DNA from: an uncultured Chloroflexia bacterium | GTDB taxonomy: Bacteria > Chloroflexota > Anaerolineae > B4-G1 > SLSP01 | DNA length: 24,000 nucleotides | Assembly: GCA_963700595.1 (NCBI GenBank) | Contig: CAVOYE010000022.1 | Span: 119,033 to 143,032, forward strand | Direction of reading: 5' to 3' | Shown here: positions 945 to 14,922 of the stretch, in pieces | Position numbering within the stretch: position 1 is the first letter of the stretch | Layout: each line of letters opens with the position of its first letter | Notes under the pieces: generated by a model | The model's database searches: none | What the model was told of the DNA's origin: nothing | Seen by the model: the letters and a program-made list of their open reading frames with translations, nothing else | Made by a program: the position numbers and the translations under genes

Positions 945-2981
945 ATGCGGTTGACCATCGCGCGAATCCTTATTGGCATCACTGTCCTGGTGTGGGTCAT
1001 CCTTTTTCCGCTTGCTGTGCTCCAAATACTTGTTCAAGTACCCAGCCTGTATCAACGCTGGATGCGCGATGGGGATGTTTATTATAAAACCGGGCAAGCT
1101 GTGTCTATAGCTGTTCTACGACGCATCCCCCAGGACGCCTGGTCACCCTGGATAAACAGGCATCCTATCGTCATTCATAATGTCTATAATCGTCTGGTCA
1201 GCCAACCCGCATTCGAAGCATCCATGGCTTCGGCACTGGAATGCTGGGTTGAATGGTGGTTAGGCGTCAAACAAAAACCTTGCTTGCTCGCACCTGAGCT
1301 GGAAGCTGCCATTGATCCCCCGCAGTGGGAGCGCGTCAGAGCCTATTTGTGGGAGACTTTGCCATCCTGTACCGAAGCATCAGCGCCGACATGTATACCT
1401 CTTGATCCCGCAGATTATGCAGCCCATGGTCAGTTGCAAAGTCTCTGGTGGGAAGGCTATAAAACTGAACTTGTGCAAGGATTAACGCAGGCAGAAGTCA
1501 CGACTATCGAGACATTATTCCAACCTCCTCCAAGAGCGTCTATTTTCAACTGGATTCTTGGTACAACATTATTCTTAACAATCCTGGCATTTCTTCTGAC
1601 CGCGTCCAGCCAGCGCGCGCTTTTTATGAGCAGTTTATTCTCTGCGATGGGAGGCAGCGCGCTGGGGGTAGGTATCGCGTTAATGTTGGGGTTGCTGCGC
1701 TATCCAACGCTTTTGTTGTGGCTGCATATCCAAACATTTGATGTCATTGATATCCTTCTCCCTCAGATTTGGCCTGCATTAGCCCAAGTGCTGGGCAAAA
1801 CGTTCATATTCACGGGCTGTATTACAATTGTCCCTGGGTTGTGCGGTTTTGCGATGGCAAGCTCCCGGCGCGTTATGCGCGTGAGTCTGCCCGTCAGTTC
1901 TGTGATTCTGCTGGTCTGTGCTTTCAATCTACTCCCTGAATCGGCTTTCACACGGGTGACCGTCTTACCACCAGCGGAACCCATAGCCACGCCTACCGCA
2001 TGGCCCACTTTTACCCCGACTCCGACCCCTACGCCAACCCCACCACCTACGCCACTGCCCCTCCTGGCAGGGACAGCTCTTCCGCAACCTGGAGGGACCT
2101 GGTGGGAGGCGCCGGACATTGTGCGGTGTATTTCTTTGGATAGAAGCCCCCTGGAAGCCATCCAATATAACGGAGATGCATTATCGATTATCCAGAATGG
2201 GCGGTATCTGCGGTTCACTTTTGCAGAGTCTGATTACATATCAGAGAAAAGGTTGCCCCGAACCTTCGACCTTATCGAAATATCCCCATCAGGGCGCTAT
2301 GCAGCTCTCACTGAAGGTAGAGACTTCTGGTTATATGCGCTTCCGGATTGGACACCTGTTGTTTGGAGCCGCATTTCCACACTCAGACCAATTACGTCAA
2401 TCTTATTTACACCAGATGAATCGCTTGTGATCATGGGCTTGCAAAGCGGGCATCTATGGGTCACGGATGTTCAGACTGGAGAACTGGTTACCCTGATGCC
2501 CGCGTTTCAATCAGCTGTTACTGCACTGGCGCCGCGCAGCGGGGATGGTGCCCTGTTTGCCGGCGCTGAAAACGGCATGGTGCAGATCTGGGATATCCAG
2601 AACCGGATTCTCGTCCGGACTTTATCCGGTCACACAGAATCAATCCAGATTATCGCGCCCTCATCGTCAGAGGATGTAATGATAGTGTTGGATGCAGCAA
2701 ACCGGTTTATATATTGGGAGGCATCAACAAGTAAAATGCTCCGTGAGCGGGGGCTTGCGGTTGATGTGACATCGAATCTGCTGTGGTTTGATGACCTGGA
2801 TAATGGTTTTGTGGTTGGTGGTACAATGGATGGGCAGGTTTTCCAACTCGACTCGCATTTTAATTATAAGAGATTGTTACAATTTGACAGTCAGATCACT
2901 GTTCTGGAAGCTGTGGGCGAGGATTATTTAATCGTTGGAACGGCGGACGGGCAATACTGTGTTGTGGGCAGCCCACTATAA
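945..2981 (+). CDS. Polytopic membrane protein with a Pro/Thr linker and a C-terminal WD40-like beta-propeller
   Basis: The ATG at 945 lies 23 nt after the upstream stop. There is an N-terminal hydrophobic helix (ILIGITVLVWVILFPLAVL) and a cluster of about 5 hydrophobic segments around aa 205-335. These are followed by a TPTPTPTPTPPPTP linker and then WD-like repeats (GHLWVTDVQTGELV; GMVQIWDIQNRILVRTLSGHTESI; GTMDGQVFQLD; GTADGQYCVV). No catalytic motif was recognised. Confidence 0.75.
   Translation: MRLTIARILIGITVLVWVILFPLAVLQILVQVPSLYQRWMRDGDVYYKTGQAVSIAVLRRIPQDAWSPWINRHPIVIHNVYNRLVSQPAFEASMASALECWVEWWLGVKQKPCLLAPELEAAIDPPQWERVRAYLWETLPSCTEASAPTCIPLDPADYAAHGQLQSLWWEGYKTELVQGLTQAEVTTIETLFQPPPRASIFNWILGTTLFLTILAFLLTASSQRALFMSSLFSAMGGSALGVGIALMLGLLRYPTLLLWLHIQTFDVIDILLPQIWPALAQVLGKTFIFTGCITIVPGLCGFAMASSRRVMRVSLPVSSVILLVCAFNLLPESAFTRVTVLPPAEPIATPTAWPTFTPTPTPTPTPPPTPLPLLAGTALPQPGGTWWEAPDIVRCISLDRSPLEAIQYNGDALSIIQNGRYLRFTFAESDYISEKRLPRTFDLIEISPSGRYAALTEGRDFWLYALPDWTPVVWSRISTLRPITSILFTPDESLVIMGLQSGHLWVTDVQTGELVTLMPAFQSAVTALAPRSGDGALFAGAENGMVQIWDIQNRILVRTLSGHTESIQIIAPSSSEDVMIVLDAANRFIYWEASTSKMLRERGLAVDVTSNLLWFDDLDNGFVVGGTMDGQVFQLDSHFNYKRLLQFDSQITVLEAVGEDYLIVGTADGQYCVVGSPL
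2013..2054 (+). repeat. Low-complexity (Thr-Pro)n coding repeat forming the linker inside the 945-2981 CDS
   Basis: The codons acc ccg act ccg acc cct acg cca acc cca cca cct acg cca encode TPTPTPTPTPPPTP. The antisense strand gives a spurious GVGVGVGV ORF (1763-2218). Confidence 0.8.
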
Positions 2982-5730: not shown

Positions 5731-6684
5731 TTGGAGGGGAGCCTTTGGTGGTGGAGAGCAGAACAGAAACTTTTGATCGTTGAAACCGCAGGAGAACGCC
5801 TGGACAGGTACGTTGTGGCATGTATCCCTGATTTATCACGGAGTACGGTCCAACGCCTGGTTCAAGAAGATCAGATCCAGGTCAACGGCGCGAGTAAACG
5901 GGTCAGTTATGTCGTCCATCCCGGCGATATCGTGACTGTAACGATACCCGCACCCATTCCAATGGAACTGCAGCCCGAGAATCTGCCCCTGGATATCGTT
6001 TATGAAGATAAAGATATCCTGGTTATCAACAAAGCTGCCGGCATGGTCGTTCATCCCGGTGCGGGTAACGCTACCGGGACAATGGTCAATGCCATTCTCG
6101 CGCACTGCCCGGACCTGGGCGGGGTGGGCGGGGTATTACGCCCGGGCATTGTGCACCGGCTCGATAAGCAGACTTCCGGCGTCATCGTTGTCGCGAAGGA
6201 TGACGGCGCAATCCATCATTTACAGCAGCAGTTCAAACAACGGACGGTCAAGAAACGCTACATCGCGCTGCTTGTCGGGCATCTGGCGCAATCCAATGGC
6301 CTTATTGAAGCGCCAATCGGGCGGCACAAGGTGCACCGGCAGCGCATGGCGGTCATTGGGAGCGGTAAAGAGGCGCGCACCCGTTGGGAGGTCAGCGCAA
6401 GGTACCGCGATGCGCAACACCGTCCTTATACGCTGGTGGATGTTGATTTATTGACCGGAAGGACGCATCAAATCAGGGTGCATTTCGCGTGGTTGGGTTA
6501 TCCTGTTGCCGGGGACCGCACCTATGGTCCGCGGGAAGGCGGATTAGCCATTCCGCGGCAGTTTTTGCACGCTGCCAGCTTGACGCTGAAGCATCCGCAG
6601 TCGGGTGAGGAAATGGTTTTTACGGTGCCACTGCCGGAGGATTTATCGCAGGTACTGCAGCAGCTGCACAGAGAGGATGCATAA
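5731..6684 (+). CDS. rluD: 23S rRNA pseudouridine synthase, RluA family, RluD type (S4 domain plus catalytic domain)
   Basis: The N-terminal S4-like segment is GERLDRYV...STVQRLVQEDQIQVNG. The catalytic motif is HRLDKQTSGVIVVAKD, followed by KRYIALLVG and GRTHQIRVH. The start is uncertain (TTG 5731 or TTG 5773). Confidence 0.9.
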   Translation: MEGSLWWWRAEQKLLIVETAGERLDRYVVACIPDLSRSTVQRLVQEDQIQVNGASKRVSYVVHPGDIVTVTIPAPIPMELQPENLPLDIVYEDKDILVINKAAGMVVHPGAGNATGTMVNAILAHCPDLGGVGGVLRPGIVHRLDKQTSGVIVVAKDDGAIHHLQQQFKQRTVKKRYIALLVGHLAQSNGLIEAPIGRHKVHRQRMAVIGSGKEARTRWEVSARYRDAQHRPYTLVDVDLLTGRTHQIRVHFAWLGYPVAGDRTYGPREGGLAIPRQFLHAASLTLKHPQSGEEMVFTVPLPEDLSQVLQQLHREDA

Positions 6685-6766
6685 GAGACCAGGTGAGGTG
6701 ATGATGCCACAGCTAAAGATTTTAGGAAATTTAGGCCTATAAAACATCATATCAAGCCTACAGACC

Positions 6767-6933
6767 GGTTTGAAGTAGTGACTTCGGCGCTGTAGTACAG
6801 CGCATCTATCTTCGTGCGGATAGCGGTTAAAACCTCTACTACGAACATGATAGTTAGCTTTGAGTGATGCCTTTTAATCCAGAAAATTCTTTACTTGATG
6901 CCTGTGGGGCGAATGATTATTCGCCCCTACAAT
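6767..6933 (+). repeat. Copy A of a conserved structured non-coding element (candidate small RNA or REP/MITE-like repeat)
   Basis: It aligns with 11305-11458 in the same orientation. Shared blocks are GTTTG-AGTAG, CTATC-n8-GATAGCG, CTACTACGAAC, and a hairpin GGGGCGAA-tgatta-TTCGCCCC at 6906-6927. There is no U tail and no conserved ORF. Confidence 0.5.
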
Positions 6934-7006
6934 ATTAAAAAAATGTGCTGCAGTCCTTTGCTTCCTGAAGGTTGACGAAACCGGCTCTTTCAGGTATCCT
7001 TCATCT

Positions 7007-7813
7007 GTGAAGAAACAACGGTTGGACTTATTCCTGGTCGACAAAGGCCTTGTTCAGAGCCGGACTTTAGCCCAGCGGATCATTGGCGCCGGTGAAGTGA
7101 CGGTCAATGGGGCGCTGGCCGATAAATCCGGCGCCATGGTAGCAGAGGATGCCACGGTTGAGATTAAGGCACAACCGCGATTTGTGAGCCGGGGGGGAGA
7201 AAAACTTGAGGCTGCCCTGGATGCGTTTGGATTGCGCATGGATGGGCTGGTCATCGCCGATATCGGCGCGTCCACCGGTGGATTCACTGATTGCCTTTTG
7301 CAGCGGGATGCAGCCAAAGTTTATGCGATAGATGTGGGATACGGGCAGTTAGCCTGGAAACTACGGCAGGACCCAAGAGTTGTGGTCATGGAACGTGAGA
7401 ACGCCCGATATCTTGAAACTTTGCCCGAGCAGGTGGATATGATTGTCTCTGATGTGAGCTTCATCTCCTTGAGGCTGGTCTATGCAACTGCTGTGCATTG
7501 GCTGAAACCGGCAGGAAAAGTTGTGAGTTTGATAAAGCCACAATTTGAGGCTGGGCGGACACTTGTCGGAAAGGGTGGGGTGGTCCGAGATCCGGCGATC
7601 CACCGGCAGGTGCTCTCGCAGATCATATCCGAAATGAAGGATTTGGACCTGCACCTTTCTGGCTTAACCGTATCACCGCTTAAAGGTCCGGCAGGGAACA
7701 TCGAGTTTCTGGGCTGGTGGGAACGCAAGCCTTCGCTCGGGACTCCTGACCTGGATGGGGCTGATGCAGACAGCCTGATTGATGAGGTTATGGAGCAAGC
7801 CGCGCGACTTTAG
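7007..7813 (+). CDS. tlyA: TlyA-family rRNA 2'-O-methyltransferase (S4 domain plus FtsJ-like methyltransferase)
   Basis: GTG start. The N-terminus MKKQRLDLFLVDKGLVQSRTLAQRIIGAGEVTVNG is the typical TlyA S4 domain. The SAM-binding motif is DIGASTGGFTDCLLQ, followed by DVGYGQLAWKLRQDPRV. Confidence 0.9.
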   Translation: MKKQRLDLFLVDKGLVQSRTLAQRIIGAGEVTVNGALADKSGAMVAEDATVEIKAQPRFVSRGGEKLEAALDAFGLRMDGLVIADIGASTGGFTDCLLQRDAAKVYAIDVGYGQLAWKLRQDPRVVVMERENARYLETLPEQVDMIVSDVSFISLRLVYATAVHWLKPAGKVVSLIKPQFEAGRTLVGKGGVVRDPAIHRQVLSQIISEMKDLDLHLSGLTVSPLKGPAGNIEFLGWWERKPSLGTPDLDGADADSLIDEVMEQAARL

Positions 7814-7875: not shown

Positions 7876-9687
7876 ATGGATACGAAACATATCAGGAATT
7901 TCAGTATTATTGCCCATATCGATCATGGGAAATCGACCCTGGCGGACAGGCTTCTGGAAGTCACCGGGACGGTTGAATCACGAAAATTCAGCGGTCAATC
8001 GCAATTGCTGGATACGATGGCGCTGGAACAGGAAAAAGGGGTCACAATCAAGGCTTCCGCGGTGAAGATGCAGTGGAAAGCTGCGGATGATGAGATCTAT
8101 GAGCTAAACTTAATTGACACACCCGGGCACGTTGACTTTGCTTATGAAGTCAGCCGGGCTCTGGCAGCATGTGAGGGTGCTATCCTGGTTGTTGACGCGA
8201 CGCAGGGCATTGAGGCGCAGACCCTGGCGAACCTTTATCTGGCTTTGGAAAACGACCTGGAAATTATCCCTGTGATCAACAAGATCGATCTGTCAACGGC
8301 GGAGGTTGAGCGTGTAACCGGCGAAATTGTTGATTTGTTGGGCGTGGCGCCCGAAGAGGTCATCGCTGTTTCCGCCAAGGAAGGCACCAATGTCGCTGCG
8401 GTTTTGCAGGCTATCGTGGACAAAGTTCCTTCACCCTCCACCGGGGATGCGGATGCCCCCTTACAGGCTTTGATCTTTGACTCCCATTATGATTCGTATA
8501 AGGGCGTCATCGCTTACGTCCGGGTTTTCCAGGGCACGGTGAGCATGGCGTCACAACTGTTGATGATGGCGACCGGCGCGAAGACAGAGCCGGTTGAAGT
8601 CGGGGTCTTTGCTCCGGAAATGACACCCATAGACCAACTCTCGGCAGGTGAAGTAGGGTACGTGGCTACCGGCTTAAAATCCGTGCGGGAAGCACATGTC
8701 GGCGATACGATCGCGGATGCCAGGAATCTTGTGAACACACCGCTGGTGGGCTATCGTCCGGCAAAACCCATGGTATTCGCCAGCCTTTATCCCTCCGATG
8801 CAGACGATTATGAAAACTTGCGGGATGCCCTGGAGAAACTGCAGTTGAATGACGCTTCACTTTCCTATGAGCCAGAAACGTCACAGGCCCTACAGTTTGG
8901 TTTCCGGTGCGGCTTCCTGGGATTGTTCCATATGGTGATTGTGCAAGAGCGCCTGGAGCGCGAATACTTCCAGGATTTGATTGTGACCGCACCCAGCGTT
9001 GCCTACCAAATCCTGCTAAACACCGGTGAGTTGATCGAAATACACAGACCCGCAGATTTGCCTGATCCCACGATGATCAAGGAGGTCCGCGAACCATGGA
9101 TGAAGGTGCAGATCATCACACCCAACACCTATATTGGCGCCATTGGCGAAATTATCCGCCGGAAGCGGGGAAACTTTATGCTTACCGAAACGTTGGACAG
9201 CACCCGGGTGATGCTGACTTTTGAGGTACCTCTGGCTGAAATGGTTATCGATCTGCACGACCGCATCAAATCCGCCACACGCGGTTACGCTTCGATGGAC
9301 TATGCATTCGATTCCTACCGCGCCGATGACCTGGTCAAAGTGGATATTATGGTCAACAAGGAACCGGTGGATGCCCTGGCGATCATTGTCCACAGTGACA
9401 AAACGTATGAAAAGGGTTCGCTGCTCATCCGCAAAATGAAAGACGCTATCCCCCGACAGCTTTTTGAAGTGCCGATCCAGGCAGCGGTTGGCGGAAAGGT
9501 TGTCGCCAGAGTGAATGTCCAGGCTTTACGCAAAGATGTCTTAGCGAAATGCTACGGCGGGGATGTGACGCGCAAAAGAAAGCTGCTTGAAAAGCAAAAG
9601 GAAGGTAAGAAGCGGATGAAACAGTTGGGAAATGTGATCATCCCGCAGGAAGCCTTTCTCGCGTTGTTGAAAATCGATGAGGATTGA
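7876..9687 (+). CDS. lepA: Translation elongation factor 4 (LepA)
   Basis: SD aggtga lies upstream of the ATG. The GTPase motifs are IRNFSIIAHIDHGKSTLADRLL (G1), DTPGHVDF (G3) and NKID (G4). The protein is 603 aa and ends with the characteristic LepA C-terminus (KRKLLEKQKEGKKRMKQLGNV.IPQEAF). Confidence 0.97.
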   Translation: MDTKHIRNFSIIAHIDHGKSTLADRLLEVTGTVESRKFSGQSQLLDTMALEQEKGVTIKASAVKMQWKAADDEIYELNLIDTPGHVDFAYEVSRALAACEGAILVVDATQGIEAQTLANLYLALENDLEIIPVINKIDLSTAEVERVTGEIVDLLGVAPEEVIAVSAKEGTNVAAVLQAIVDKVPSPSTGDADAPLQALIFDSHYDSYKGVIAYVRVFQGTVSMASQLLMMATGAKTEPVEVGVFAPEMTPIDQLSAGEVGYVATGLKSVREAHVGDTIADARNLVNTPLVGYRPAKPMVFASLYPSDADDYENLRDALEKLQLNDASLSYEPETSQALQFGFRCGFLGLFHMVIVQERLEREYFQDLIVTAPSVAYQILLNTGELIEIHRPADLPDPTMIKEVREPWMKVQIITPNTYIGAIGEIIRRKRGNFMLTETLDSTRVMLTFEVPLAEMVIDLHDRIKSATRGYASMDYAFDSYRADDLVKVDIMVNKEPVDALAIIVHSDKTYEKGSLLIRKMKDAIPRQLFEVPIQAAVGGKVVARVNVQALRKDVLAKCYGGDVTRKRKLLEKQKEGKKRMKQLGNVIIPQEAFLALLKIDED

Positions 9688-10901: not shown

Positions 10902-10929
10902 TTGCGAAAATAATGGTTTAGGGTATAAT
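10902..10929 (+). promoter_or_regulatory. Sigma70-type promoter of tRNA-Pro
   Basis: TTGCGA at 10902-10907, a 16-nt spacer, then consensus TATAAT at 10924-10929. The mature tRNA 5' end lies 12 nt downstream. Confidence 0.6.
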
Positions 10930-10940
10930 GCACCTTGCTT

Positions 10941-11015
10941 CGGGGCGTGGCCCAGCTTGGCTAGGGCGCTACAATGGGGTTGTAGAGGTCGACGGTTCAA
11001 ATCCGTCCGCCCCGA
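10941..11015 (+). tRNA. tRNA-Pro: tRNA-Pro, anticodon GGG; CCA is not encoded
   Basis: The cloverleaf was folded by hand. The acceptor stem is CGGGGCG/CGCCCCG and the D stem is GCCC/GGGC. The anticodon stem is CTACA/TGTAG with loop A-T-GGG-G-T (U33 and G37 present). The variable loop is AGGTC. The T arm is GACGG-TTCAAAT-CCGTC, and the discriminator is A. Confidence 0.9.
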
Positions 11016-11019
11016 CTGA

Positions 11020-11080
11020 ATCGGGTACGGCAGTGGATTTTTGTAAGTTGAAAGTCAATTGCCGTACCCGATTTTTGTTT
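11020..11080 (+). terminator. Long hairpin with a T-tract downstream of tRNA-Pro; probable intrinsic terminator
   Basis: ATCGGGTACGGCA (11020-11032) pairs perfectly (13 bp) with TGCCGTACCCGAT (11060-11072) and is followed by TTTTGTTT. The 27-nt loop is unusually large. Confidence 0.55.
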
Positions 11081-11304
11081 GTGGGGAACGCGCTATATAC
11101 AGGTTGCCATAGCGATTAGAACTGTAAGTGTTAGTACTTCGAGCATTATTGAATGTATTTGAGAATTTGGAAGTTATTTAAATTATGGAGCCAATAAGGA
11201 AAATACCTTCCCGGAAGGTGGTGTTCGGCTTGGCTTGATGCGCGAAGGTGAATGGTTTTTCGTCACCTTAGGTATCAACTTACGTAATGATAGCACATTC
11301 AAAT

Positions 11305-11458
11305 CGTTTGTAGTAGAAACTTTAGTTTCTATCTGCGGGCGGATAGCGACTAAAGTCACTACTACGAACGGATCGGAAAACTTCACATGTCGTACTTTTG
11401 TGCTTATTTTCCTTAAGTTGCCGTGCAGAGGGCGAATGGGTGTTCGCCCCTAAGCAAT
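11305..11458 (+). repeat. Copy B of the conserved structured non-coding element
   Basis: A 12-bp closing helix forms between CGTTTGTAGTAG (11305-11316) and CTACTACGAACG (11359-11370). Inside it are the helix ACTTTA/TAAAGT and the hairpin CTATC-tgcgggcg-GATAG (11329-11346). The 3' hairpin is GGGCGAA-tgggtg-TTCGCCC (11430-11449). Confidence 0.5.
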
Positions 11459-11505: not shown

Positions 11506-12810
11506 TTAATCGCCGGTATAGAAGACGCGGTAGATGTTCCCGCCGCCATCGTCTGAGATATACAGGCTGCCGTCCGGTCCGGTAATGACGTCGACCGGGC
11601 GACCCCATTGGGAGCCATCTCCACGCAGCCAACCGACAGCAAAATCTTCTACGACTCCGGGTTTTCCATCCTCAATAGAAACGCGTACGACTTTGTATCC
11701 AGTAGCGGGTGTGCGATTCCATGAACCGTGAAAGGCAACGAACAGATCCCCTTGAAAGGTTGCGGGAAACTGGTTGCCGGTGTAAAAGGTCAGTCCCAGC
11801 GGCGCAGAGTGCGCCTGCATTTCAACTTCTGGTTTCAGCACACCTTCACACGCGCCGGGTTTGCCAAAGTCGGGGTCGATAATCCGCCCGCTATGGCAGC
11901 GGGGCCAACCCGCATCATCCCCTTCCTGGATTTTATAGACTGTCTCGGGCGGCTGGTCATTGCCCAACCAGTCACGCCCGTTATTGGTCACCCAGAGTTC
12001 GTCAGTTCCCGGGCGGTACGTGATCCCCACAGCGTTGCGCAATCCCAACGTAAAGACTGTTTCATCACTGCCGTCAGGTTTGTAGCGGACGACCGTAGCA
12101 CGCCGGGCGTCTTCCTCAGTGCAGACATTGCACGAGGAGCCAATAGAAACGAATAAATAAGAGTTATCGGGGCTGAAGACAACGGTGCGGGTGCTGTGCC
12201 CTCCGCTGGGCAACCTGTCGATGACCACGTTTTTGTCCTGGAATACACCATCGCCATCCGGATCGCGCAGTTGAAGAATGCGTGTCGTCTCGCCAACATA
12301 CAGCGATCCGTCTTTGGCAAACGCGAGACTGCTGGGGGAGTTTAAGTCTGAGGCTACAACTTCAACCGCATCTGCCACGCCGTCACGGTCTCTGTCAGGC
12401 AGGCGGATGATGCGTCCGGCGCTTCTTTCTGCCACGTAGAGTTCGCCATCAGGCCCAAGTGCCATCATCCGCGGATCGCGCAGTTCCCCGATATAGACCG
12501 AGATGCCAAATCCGGGCGGCAGGTTAATGGTATCCTGCGGCGGAATGACACGCGTCGGTGCTGCCGGTGGATTCACATCCGGAACAGCAGTCTGCGTGAC
12601 TGTGGAATCCGGCGATGCGGGTGTGGCTGTTGGTTGCGGGGTGGGTGGGGGAGAACTTGGCGCAGATTCTTTGCGGGTTGGCAGGGGGATCGCCGTTGGC
12701 GCAGTGGTAGTTTCTACGTCATTTTGAAACATGTTCAGCGCGACCTGGCATCCCGTCAGCGTCAGGATAGCGAGGCTGAGCAGGATGAATAGTCTGTATT
12801 TACCTTTCAT
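11506..12810 (-). CDS. PQQ-dependent sugar (glucose/sorbosone-type) dehydrogenase family beta-propeller; lipoprotein
   Basis: The ATG at 12810 has a GGAGG SD 5 nt upstream; the track's longer start at 12828 lacks one. The signal peptide ends in the lipobox LTLTGC, followed by a Pro/Thr-rich linker. Family-typical repeats include GPDGELYVAE, GSLYVGE, GLRNAVGITYRPGTDELWVTNNGRDWLG, HSAPLGLTFY and GPDGSLYISDDGGGNIYRV. Confidence 0.85.
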   Translation of the reverse strand: MKGKYRLFILLSLAILTLTGCQVALNMFQNDVETTTAPTAIPLPTRKESAPSSPPPTPQPTATPASPDSTVTQTAVPDVNPPAAPTRVIPPQDTINLPPGFGISVYIGELRDPRMMALGPDGELYVAERSAGRIIRLPDRDRDGVADAVEVVASDLNSPSSLAFAKDGSLYVGETTRILQLRDPDGDGVFQDKNVVIDRLPSGGHSTRTVVFSPDNSYLFVSIGSSCNVCTEEDARRATVVRYKPDGSDETVFTLGLRNAVGITYRPGTDELWVTNNGRDWLGNDQPPETVYKIQEGDDAGWPRCHSGRIIDPDFGKPGACEGVLKPEVEMQAHSAPLGLTFYTGNQFPATFQGDLFVAFHGSWNRTPATGYKVVRVSIEDGKPGVVEDFAVGWLRGDGSQWGRPVDVITGPDGSLYISDDGGGNIYRVFYTGD

Positions 12811-13044
12811 TTGTACCTCCTGTGTCATAGAAACGCGTCATTGAAAACGTTTACAATTTTTGCAGATATGCGCGCGATATTCTATGATTTACTCTTAGCA
12901 TACACTATTTTGCATAAAAAATGTGAAATGACGCATTAAATAAACCGAAAAGTTCAACAAAGGGTGATAGAATGGAGGCATAGGATATCGACTATGTATA
13001 TGACGAAGGATTGAGTTATGCACATTCTATAAGGAGGACTACAT

Positions 13045-14799: not shown

Positions 14800-14853
14800 A
14801 GGTGATTTGGCAAGCAGGTCTTTGGATCCAGACAGCAAACGCTATTTATACAC

Positions 14854-14880
14854 AAAAGGGGCGATAGCATCGCCCCTTTT
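14854..14880. terminator. Bidirectional intrinsic terminator between convergent fhs and the zinc-ribbon gene
   Basis: The sequence AAAAGGGGCGAT-agc-ATCGCCCCTTTT forms a perfect GC-rich stem. It is flanked by an A-tract on one side and a T-tract on the other, so it can terminate both strands. Confidence 0.7.
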
Positions 14881-14922
14881 GTGTTGGTGTGCAGCAATCA
14901 ATACTTGTGTTGGGAACTCAGA

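Follow-up and report, generated by a model that had tools for sequence, protein, structure and literature searches.

GTAG-tagged REPs have been sorted into families GTAG-1 to GTAG-24 in a survey that names Chloroflexi among the host phyla (Di Nocera et al. 2013, PMC3733652); the sole Chloroflexi case that can be traced in its text is Thermomicrobium roseum, with GTAG-23 (PMC3733652). In E. coli, TnpArep binds the folded single-stranded REP and cuts at its GTAG head (cited in PMC3733652). A literature search found no paper linking REPs with Anaerolineae. To our knowledge, REPIN-RAYT studies have been conducted almost wholly in Proteobacteria. The BIMEs of E. coli are bound by IHF, gyrase and Pol I.

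The DNA analyzed here is a stretch of 24,000 nt (the window), which the homologues of its TlyA and dehydrogenase place in the Anaerolineales (Chloroflexota). The Anaerolineae are an abundant and poorly studied group of Chloroflexota found in sediments and digesters. The window contains two copies of an intergenic element, and we conclude that each is very probably a small cluster of REP-type DNA hairpins belonging to an Anaerolineae REP-RAYT system.

Position and anatomy of the two copies

Copy A (6768-6933, plus strand) lies between a gene for an RluA/RluD-family pseudouridine synthase (5731-6684) and tlyA (7007-7813), and copy B (11306-11458, plus strand) lies between tRNA-Pro(GGG) (10941-11016) and a convergent gene for a PQQ/sorbosone-type dehydrogenase (11506-12828, minus strand), whose 3' end faces it. 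Both are intergenic, in keeping with the extragenic location of REPs. A preliminary description had set the two segments at 6767-6933 and 11305-11458 in the same orientation, and their positions and strand are verified here. The blocks reported as shared are likewise present, with GCGGATAGCGnnTAAAnnCnCTACTACGAAC and GGGCGAATGnnTnTTCGCCCCTA having two exact occurrences each in the window and no matches in 100 shuffles. A repeat search returns a 42-nt block with 83% identity and a 23-nt block with 87% identity, and since the start-to-start offset is 4523 for both, the equal step of 61 nt (6846 to 6907 in copy A; 11369 to 11430 in copy B) is correct. The shuffles and the common offset together exclude chance, as the preliminary description had argued.

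Overlooked in that description are the inverted repeats within the element. The 5' block GTTTGNAGTAG is matched by CTACTACGAAC, the two forming the arms of an 11-bp inverted repeat, and CTATCT is matched by GGATAG. The core they delimit is a REP doublet (REPIN) composed of two units in inverted orientation with their heads outward, each having a head GTT[T/C]GTAG, a 6-7-bp stem and a TTTA loop. In copy B the core (11306..11369, plus strand, 64 nt) is a near-perfect hairpin whose 32-nt arms are 81% complementary and 2 nt apart, which is the long hairpin expected of a REPIN. Its 5' unit reads GTTTGTAG-TAGAAAC-TTTA-GTTTCTA and its 3' unit, on the minus strand, GTTCGTAG-TAGTGAC-TTTA-GTCGCTA, both with a TTTA loop and a 7-bp stem, within the ~5-13 bp of a short REP palindrome.

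The core of copy A (6768..6846, plus strand) is 79 nt in length. Ten of 11 positions pair between its outer arms, GTTTGAAGTAG (6768-6778) and CTACTACGAAC (6836-6846). Its 3' unit, read on the minus strand, is GTTCGTAG-TAGAGGT-TTTA-ACCGCTA; the 5' unit is degenerate, with outer arms as in copy B. An extra GC hairpin, GCGCTGTAGTACAGCGC (6787..6803, plus strand), is inserted in the 5' arm; it is missing from copy B, and copies C and D of the sister species (see below) have it in one orientation or the other. The inner stem CTATC(T)/(G)GATAG, with an 8-nt loop (6806..6823, plus strand), consists of the facing tails of the two REP units. All four arms in the window fit GTTTGTAGTAG with at most one mismatch each, and the head, GTTTGTAG or GTTCGTAG, is directly 5' of a stem TAGnnnn...nnnnCTA both in the window and in the family consensus, with the GTAG tetranucleotide outside the hairpin at one end as is characteristic of REPs. 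Two alternative folds are possible for the doublet, a single long hairpin and a cloverleaf made up of small hairpins.

Such folding might also be that of a new structured small RNA or 3'-UTR element of ~160 nt, transcribed from the plus strand and acting as RNA, with a cloverleaf or long-hairpin 5' domain, a fixed-length spacer and a 3' hairpin; we consider this improbable. The folds are stabler than those of shuffled sequences (z -3.7, -5.2 and -3.3, with the 168-nt segment of copy B at -63 kcal/mol and z -5.2), the outer and inner stems include U-G wobbles that pair on the plus strand only, and copies A, C and D are downstream of co-directional ORFs. The strand preference of the wobbles arises because the heads differ at one position (GTTTG versus GTTCG), and both variants are common across the repeat family. 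RNAalifold on three copies gives no covariation, as the conserved stems are invariant. There is no evident promoter or terminator for such an RNA, and a strong tRNA terminator precedes copy B. Rfam matches also fail to support it: at gathering thresholds the sole match in the whole window is tRNA-Pro, and at E<=10 the two regions return nothing but generic hairpin matches to miRNA models. The earlier remark that the element was not recognized as a known RNA family is borne out by the covariance-model search.

Following the core in each copy is a 59-nt linker (6847..6905 in copy A and 11370..11428 in copy B, both plus strand), with about 56-68% identity between copies. Next to the linker is a 3' hairpin, which is GGGGCGAATGATTATTCGCCCC followed by TACAAT in copy A (6906..6933, plus strand), and (A)GGGCGAATGGGTGTTCGCCCC followed by TAAGCAAT in copy B (11429..11458, plus strand), neither having a U tract. 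On the minus strand the copy A hairpin reads ATTGTAG-GGGCGAAT-AATC-ATTCGCCC, a GTAG-tagged REP-like unit. Copy D has the same form (GTGAGTAG-GGGCAAAT...), and the head is degenerate in copy B (TTAG, minus strand) and in copy C (GTAT). With a GTAG-like head in three of the five copies in all, the 3' hairpin is a candidate third REP unit.

The left flanks appear to mirror this arrangement. The copy A left flank (6704..6767, plus strand) contains a hairpin GATGATG...CATCAT and weakly matches the inverted first half of the linker (nhmmer E values of 0.14 in the window and 0.011 in the second strain, L013), and is probably the decayed left arm of a larger palindrome. In copy B a left module (11234..11283, plus strand), comprising CTTGAT, the hairpin AAGGTGA...TCACCTT and ATCAACTTA, mirrors the right-hand TTAAGTTG-hairpin module in inverted orientation, albeit with a different hairpin, giving a region of ~230 nt in all, and copy D has an inverted copy of the 3'-hairpin module on its left. 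Because the left modules mirror the right ones, the full structure is an imperfect palindrome of ~230-260 nt, of which the segment in the preliminary description forms the right two-thirds. As a whole, the element may be best viewed as a BIME-like mosaic of REP units.

The location of the 3' hairpin raises the question of an unusual transcription signal, either a U-less terminator or insulator serving rluD and the convergent dehydrogenase gene, or a promoter. The hairpin is 0-55 nt from the dehydrogenase stop codon (copies D and B), rluD is without another terminator, and in four copies a TTGAYG box is positioned 17 nt upstream of a TATTCG-like hexamer, this promoter-like TTGACG-N17-TATTCG spanning the 3' hairpin. 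However, the terminators of this genome are of the canonical U-tract type, as seen in the window at 11019-11080 (after tRNA-Pro) and 14850-14884 (after fhs), the -10-like hexamer is without the conserved final T and was missed by the promoter scan, and tlyA has its own conserved promoter downstream, making a transcription signal very unlikely. The element had previously been described as not a terminator, promoter or conserved ORF, and these assignments stand: the 3' hairpins end without a U tract, a promoter within the 3' hairpin was rejected for its poor -10 hexamer, and a small ORF was rejected because the frames are short and unconserved.

The tlyA promoter, TTGACG-N17-TATCCT (6972-7007), is conserved near base-for-base in contigs L004, L010 and L013, and stops 7 nt short of the GTG start codon, an arrangement that suggests the tlyA mRNA is leaderless. 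The tRNA-Pro(GGG) region (10902-11080) has its own promoter, TTGCGA-N16-TATAAT, together with a long-stem U-tract terminator that is ~90% identical in the sister species despite an unalignable surrounding spacer. Integron attC sites, retron msr/msd, CRISPR repeats or anti-repeats, guide-RNA scaffolds and rolling-circle origins were also considered and set aside, there being no partner gene in the window; their motif order also appears unlike that of the element.

The related repeat family and its RAYT genes

The first scans for related sequences used patterns tied too closely to the window's own sequence, and yielded no matches in metagenomes with the first pattern, no matches in the viral collection, and three matches in genome contigs, only one of which (L002, a GTDB Anaerolineae MAG) is plausibly related. 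In L002 (4190-4350, minus strand) two tandem units of ~57 nt, GTAGCGGCTAAAGGCCGTTACTGCGAG... and ATAGCGGGTAAAGGCCGCTACTACGAAC..., lie between convergent genes and are a diverged relative of the window's REP family. A scan of metagenomes with the doublet pattern GTTTGWAGTAG-N42-72-CTACTACRARC matched more than 120 contigs, with many of the matches palindromic on both strands. Units, counted as GTTTGTAGTAG with at most one mismatch, number 712 in 876 kb among the matches listed, compared to ~14 expected by chance, and the densest locus among them has 34 units in 14 kb. A match to a repeat family is what the preliminary description had named as evidence against novelty, and because the core has further copies on this scale its claim to be a new class is removed.

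These units have the properties of REPs. Among the matches listed, a hairpin of at least 4 bp is adjacent to the head in 595 of 707 units, with a TTTA loop in 336. Units in the TTTA register include 30 types of 4-bp stem, and 343 of 382 are fully paired (shuffle mean 82), showing that the stems covary. Also among the matches listed, the units are mostly extragenic: only 15% of unit heads fall within ORFs of at least 150 aa, although these ORFs account for 74% of the bases. Doublets with heads outward outnumber those with heads inward (143 and 24 among the matches listed), although the loci were picked by the doublet pattern and the arrangement statistics are therefore biased towards doublets; among the matches listed, the median length of the heads-outward doublets is 65 nt, compared to 64 and 79 nt for the two in the window. 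Arrays in tandem are frequent as well, and hairpin units of 27-30 nt occur singly too. Two loci (L031 615-690 and L023 2734-2860) have tandem arrays of the bare head (GTTTGTAGTAGTAAC five times) or of head plus hairpin, which point to slippage or to rounds of cutting and joining at the head.

The metagenome relatives correspond to the core and to no other part of the element. A covariance model built on three copies (R1) matched the core in the metagenome loci and never the linker or 3' hairpin, and neither this model nor an nhmmer profile of the right arm found a counterpart of the linker and 3' hairpin in ~900 kb of REP-bearing metagenome loci. By these searches, the linker and 3' hairpin are found only in the window's lineage.

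RAYT genes are present among the related contigs. A local phmmer search of the metagenome loci, using an approximate E. coli RAYT sequence as a heuristic query only, picked three ORFs of ~200 aa (in L040, L054 and L126), each with doublets on both sides. The L040 protein scores 89.8 bits with NCBIfam NF047646 'REP-associated tyrosine transposase' (curated cut-off 80) and 16.2 bits with the IS200 model (cut-off 55), and is just under threshold for Pfam Y1_Tnp. Among solved structures its best relative is TnpArep of E. coli (4ER8; E 5.6e-6), with which the HUH and Y-NPVKH motifs align. There are 691 homologues at E<=1e-20, and those that are named are almost all from Anaerolineae, Anaerolineaceae, Ardenticatenaceae or Chloroflexota. 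A homologue with 63% identity (P0339) is labelled as from a cyanobacterial MAG (Kamptonema sp.), reflecting contamination during binning or else a horizontal transfer of the system. Two NCBI Anaerolineae MAGs (L134 and L135) again have a RAYT gene between doublets, which are genome-specific variants such as GTTCGTAGTAACGAC-TTTA-GTCGT...ACCGC-TAAA-GCGGTTACTACAAAC, and REP-flanked RAYT genes are thus seen at five related loci. In one of these MAGs (GCA_016931835.1; L134 1182-19003) the RAYT gene and REP doublets are inside an apparent defence island, along with genes for a SNF2 helicase, DarT and a Macro domain (DarTG-like), DUF1156, HEPN_Swt1/DUF499 and CHAT-NACHT.

The arrangement in Anaerolineae is that described for Proteobacteria, and matching features are given in the survey of GTAG-tagged REPs (PMC3733652). 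The preliminary description had proposed either a folded RNA or a protein-recognised DNA element; the GTAG REP doublet at the core, and the RAYT genes flanked by such doublets in relatives, support the second of these options and not the first. They also bear on whether the element is a conventional MITE, a deletion derivative of a DDE-type IS with terminal inverted repeats and target-site duplications. Although a MITE would be palindromic, noncoding, multi-copy and intergenic, as this element is, and palindromic repeats of other kinds occupy this spacer in a more distant relative (L004), the gene found with the units in related contigs encodes a Y1/HUH RAYT and not a DDE transposase, and the 27-30-nt hairpin units also occur single and in tandem. 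Moreover, the core is without flanking direct repeats (..GACCG|GTTTG...CGAAC|ATGAT and ..AAATC|GTTTG...CGAAC|GGATC), and in none of copies A to D was a direct repeat indicative of a target-site duplication found around the core or around the element as a whole. We therefore regard a conventional MITE as highly improbable.

Orthologous loci, strains and inversions

The closest other species is represented by MAG GCA_004525435.1, with TlyA 87% and the dehydrogenase 83% identical to those of the window, and this sister species has the element at both orthologous sites. Copy C (L010:29-210) is upstream of tlyA, and copy D (L011 1329-1159, minus strand) abuts the dehydrogenase stop codon. The rest of the spacers cannot be aligned, with the exception of the tlyA promoter and the tRNA terminator. 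With only two copies in 24 kb, both on the same strand, the element could be seen as the relic of a local duplication, in which an intergenic segment was copied 4.5 kb away and has neither family nor function. This is refuted by the presence of copies at both loci in the sister species and by the metagenome family, with its hundreds of related units in other Anaerolineae contigs; nor is there any duplication outside the element. Such a relic is the least credible of the explanations considered.

In relatives at ~75% TlyA identity the element is absent and there are other palindromic repeats in the same spacer; covariance model R1 finds no further copy in the window or in the syntenic loci of these relatives. 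A more distant relative (L004) has far longer spacers at the same sites (6456-7504 and 8442-9116) with other repeats. There are 13-nt tandem arrays at 7079-7130 and at 7347-7396, a direct repeat of 39 nt is present at 8454 and 8558, and the two parts of an inverted repeat of 23 nt are separated by 411 nt (8607-9063). A hairpin with a GTAG head is located at 8678-8699 and recurs inverted at 6633-6654.

A small palindrome downstream of tRNA-Pro, ACCTTCC(C/G)GGAAGGT (11205-11219 in the window; L011 about 2105-2122, minus strand), is kept in both species within a spacer that is otherwise unalignable. There is also a synteny breakpoint after tRNA-Pro (L011 1543-1863; L005 4716-5183), where an additional ORF of 106 aa and ~600 nt are present in the sister species, and a fragment of a phage-integrase gene in a relative with 75% TlyA identity; these contents indicate that tRNA-Pro is probably an integration hot spot. 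The possibility that the element is itself a tRNA-linked integration scar was rejected, as the tRNA 3' end is not repeated.

A second strain of the window's species (L013) is 96% identical over 17.8 kb. Its copy B has no differences in the left module, core and linker, and two in the 3' hairpin. Locus A has a dense patch of change in which the inner stem-loop is altered, one small hairpin is changed from GGTT/AACC to GATT/AATC, and the linker is reduced from 59 to 34 nt, a loss of 25 nt. In the contig of this strain (L013 / L136; ENA contig_18940, 212 kb) many genes are split, among them argS, lepA and those for the AI-2E transporter and the WD40 protein, which is typical of uncorrected long-read frameshifts, and small differences from the window therefore need caution; the 25-nt linker deletion is too large for a long-read error. 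The identical spacing noted in the preliminary description thus applies to both copies in the window, where the step is 61 nt, and is not universal: the distance from the core end to GGGG is 59, 59, 60 and 59 nt in four copies and 34 nt at locus A of the conspecific strain. In the ~32.5 kb examined of the window's species there are two doublets only.

Parts of the element have also changed orientation. A 28-nt segment of the copy D core matches copy C at 27 of 28 positions as its reverse complement and at 13 of 28 directly, while the five outermost bases of the arms, like the 3' hairpin, are not inverted. Similarly, the inner-stem loop of copy D matches that of copy A at 7 of 8 positions as the reverse complement and at 2 of 8 directly. 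Flips between the arms, patchy divergence at locus A and the 25-nt loss are, as we read these alignments, the behavior of a population of DNA palindromes.

These comparisons bear most directly on whether the element acts as RNA. The paired change in the small hairpin between strains, the retention of the element at orthologous loci in the sister species, and the linker length kept in four of the five copies would all fit an RNA. But the core is part of a DNA repeat family that has a transposase of its own. Between copies C and D the core is flipped with respect to the 3' hairpin, and loops are inverted between copies A and D, such that loop sequences change and wobbles become mismatches; in one strain, moreover, the linker is shorter by 25 nt. 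The flips and the linker loss are hard to reconcile with an RNA that depends on its loops and spacing, and together with the lack of a visible promoter or terminator they weaken the new RNA family towards which the preliminary description had leaned.

Mechanism, significance and comparison with described systems

The mechanism we propose for the REP doublets is taken from the REP-RAYT family at large. At the replication fork, a single-copy RAYT, an HUH/Y1 enzyme related to IS200 TnpA, would bind the REP hairpin folded in single-stranded DNA and cut at or beside the GTAG head, and the cut doublet would then be either excised and re-inserted, or copied. Once in place, doublets may stay for long periods at fixed intergenic sites, where they would drift, recombine and flip. 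Effects on neighboring genes, such as protection of the 3' end of an upstream mRNA, are possible, and would be secondary and speculative.

The composite of doublet, 59-60-nt linker and GTAG-tagged GC hairpin is present at the same two loci in two species whose flanking spacers have diverged past alignment, with a mirror-image left module in copies B and D, and retention of the linker length (59, 59, 60 and 59 nt) at ~60% identity could hint at an added function. This lineage-specific composite may have been co-opted as a functional unit beyond its role as a transposase substrate, for example as a small RNA or as a bidirectional, U-less element acting on 3' ends or mRNA stability, but we think it rather unlikely.

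With the element identified as REP-type, a false lead towards a new class of RNA is eliminated and a concrete annotation takes its place. More broadly, the Anaerolineae have a widespread REP-RAYT system with the signature GTT[T/C]GTAGTAG plus a TTTA-loop hairpin. As a large and independent population in another phylum, it offers a second test bed for long-lived, vertically inherited intragenomic replicators. The signature can be used for repeat masking in ncRNA screens and as a source of strain-typing markers, and it explains contig breaks in Anaerolineae MAGs. What remains novel is the lineage-specific composite with its length-conserved linker.

Among described systems, the ERIC, Correia and RUP-type MITEs resemble the element in being palindromic and intergenic, with lengths of 100-260 nt and the possibility of co-transcription with neighboring genes. 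However, these MITEs have terminal inverted repeats and target duplications and no dedicated Y1 transposase, whereas the repeating unit in the window is a GTAG hairpin of 27-30 nt. The ends of IS200/IS605 elements and PATEs are similar in having sub-terminal hairpins for a Y1/HUH transposase acting on single-stranded DNA, with no need for terminal inverted repeats or target duplications, but the window element is without internal tnpA or tnpB and the enzyme in its relatives fits the RAYT model and not that of IS200. The E. coli BIMEs share with it several REP-like hairpins at fixed relative positions, length-conserved linkers, and a location at gene 3' ends and between convergent genes; the third hairpin and 59-nt linker in the window are lineage-specific, and unrelated in sequence to the E. 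coli linkers.

The closest correspondence is with GTAG REPs and REPIN-RAYT systems, such as REP/TnpArep of E. coli and those of Pseudomonas fluorescens SBW25. Like these, the Anaerolineae repeats have a GTAG head beside a short covarying hairpin, and are extragenic, clustered, and arranged as inverted doublets that form one long or two small hairpins. They are also alike in their persistence at orthologous sites and in the single flanked gene fitting the RAYT model, which is known here from related contigs. They differ in that the copy number in the window's species seems low (two doublets in ~32.5 kb), the RAYT being known from relatives, and are set apart from other GTAG REPs by a longer head (GTT[T/C]GTAGTAG), the TTTA loop, and an Anaerolineae host.
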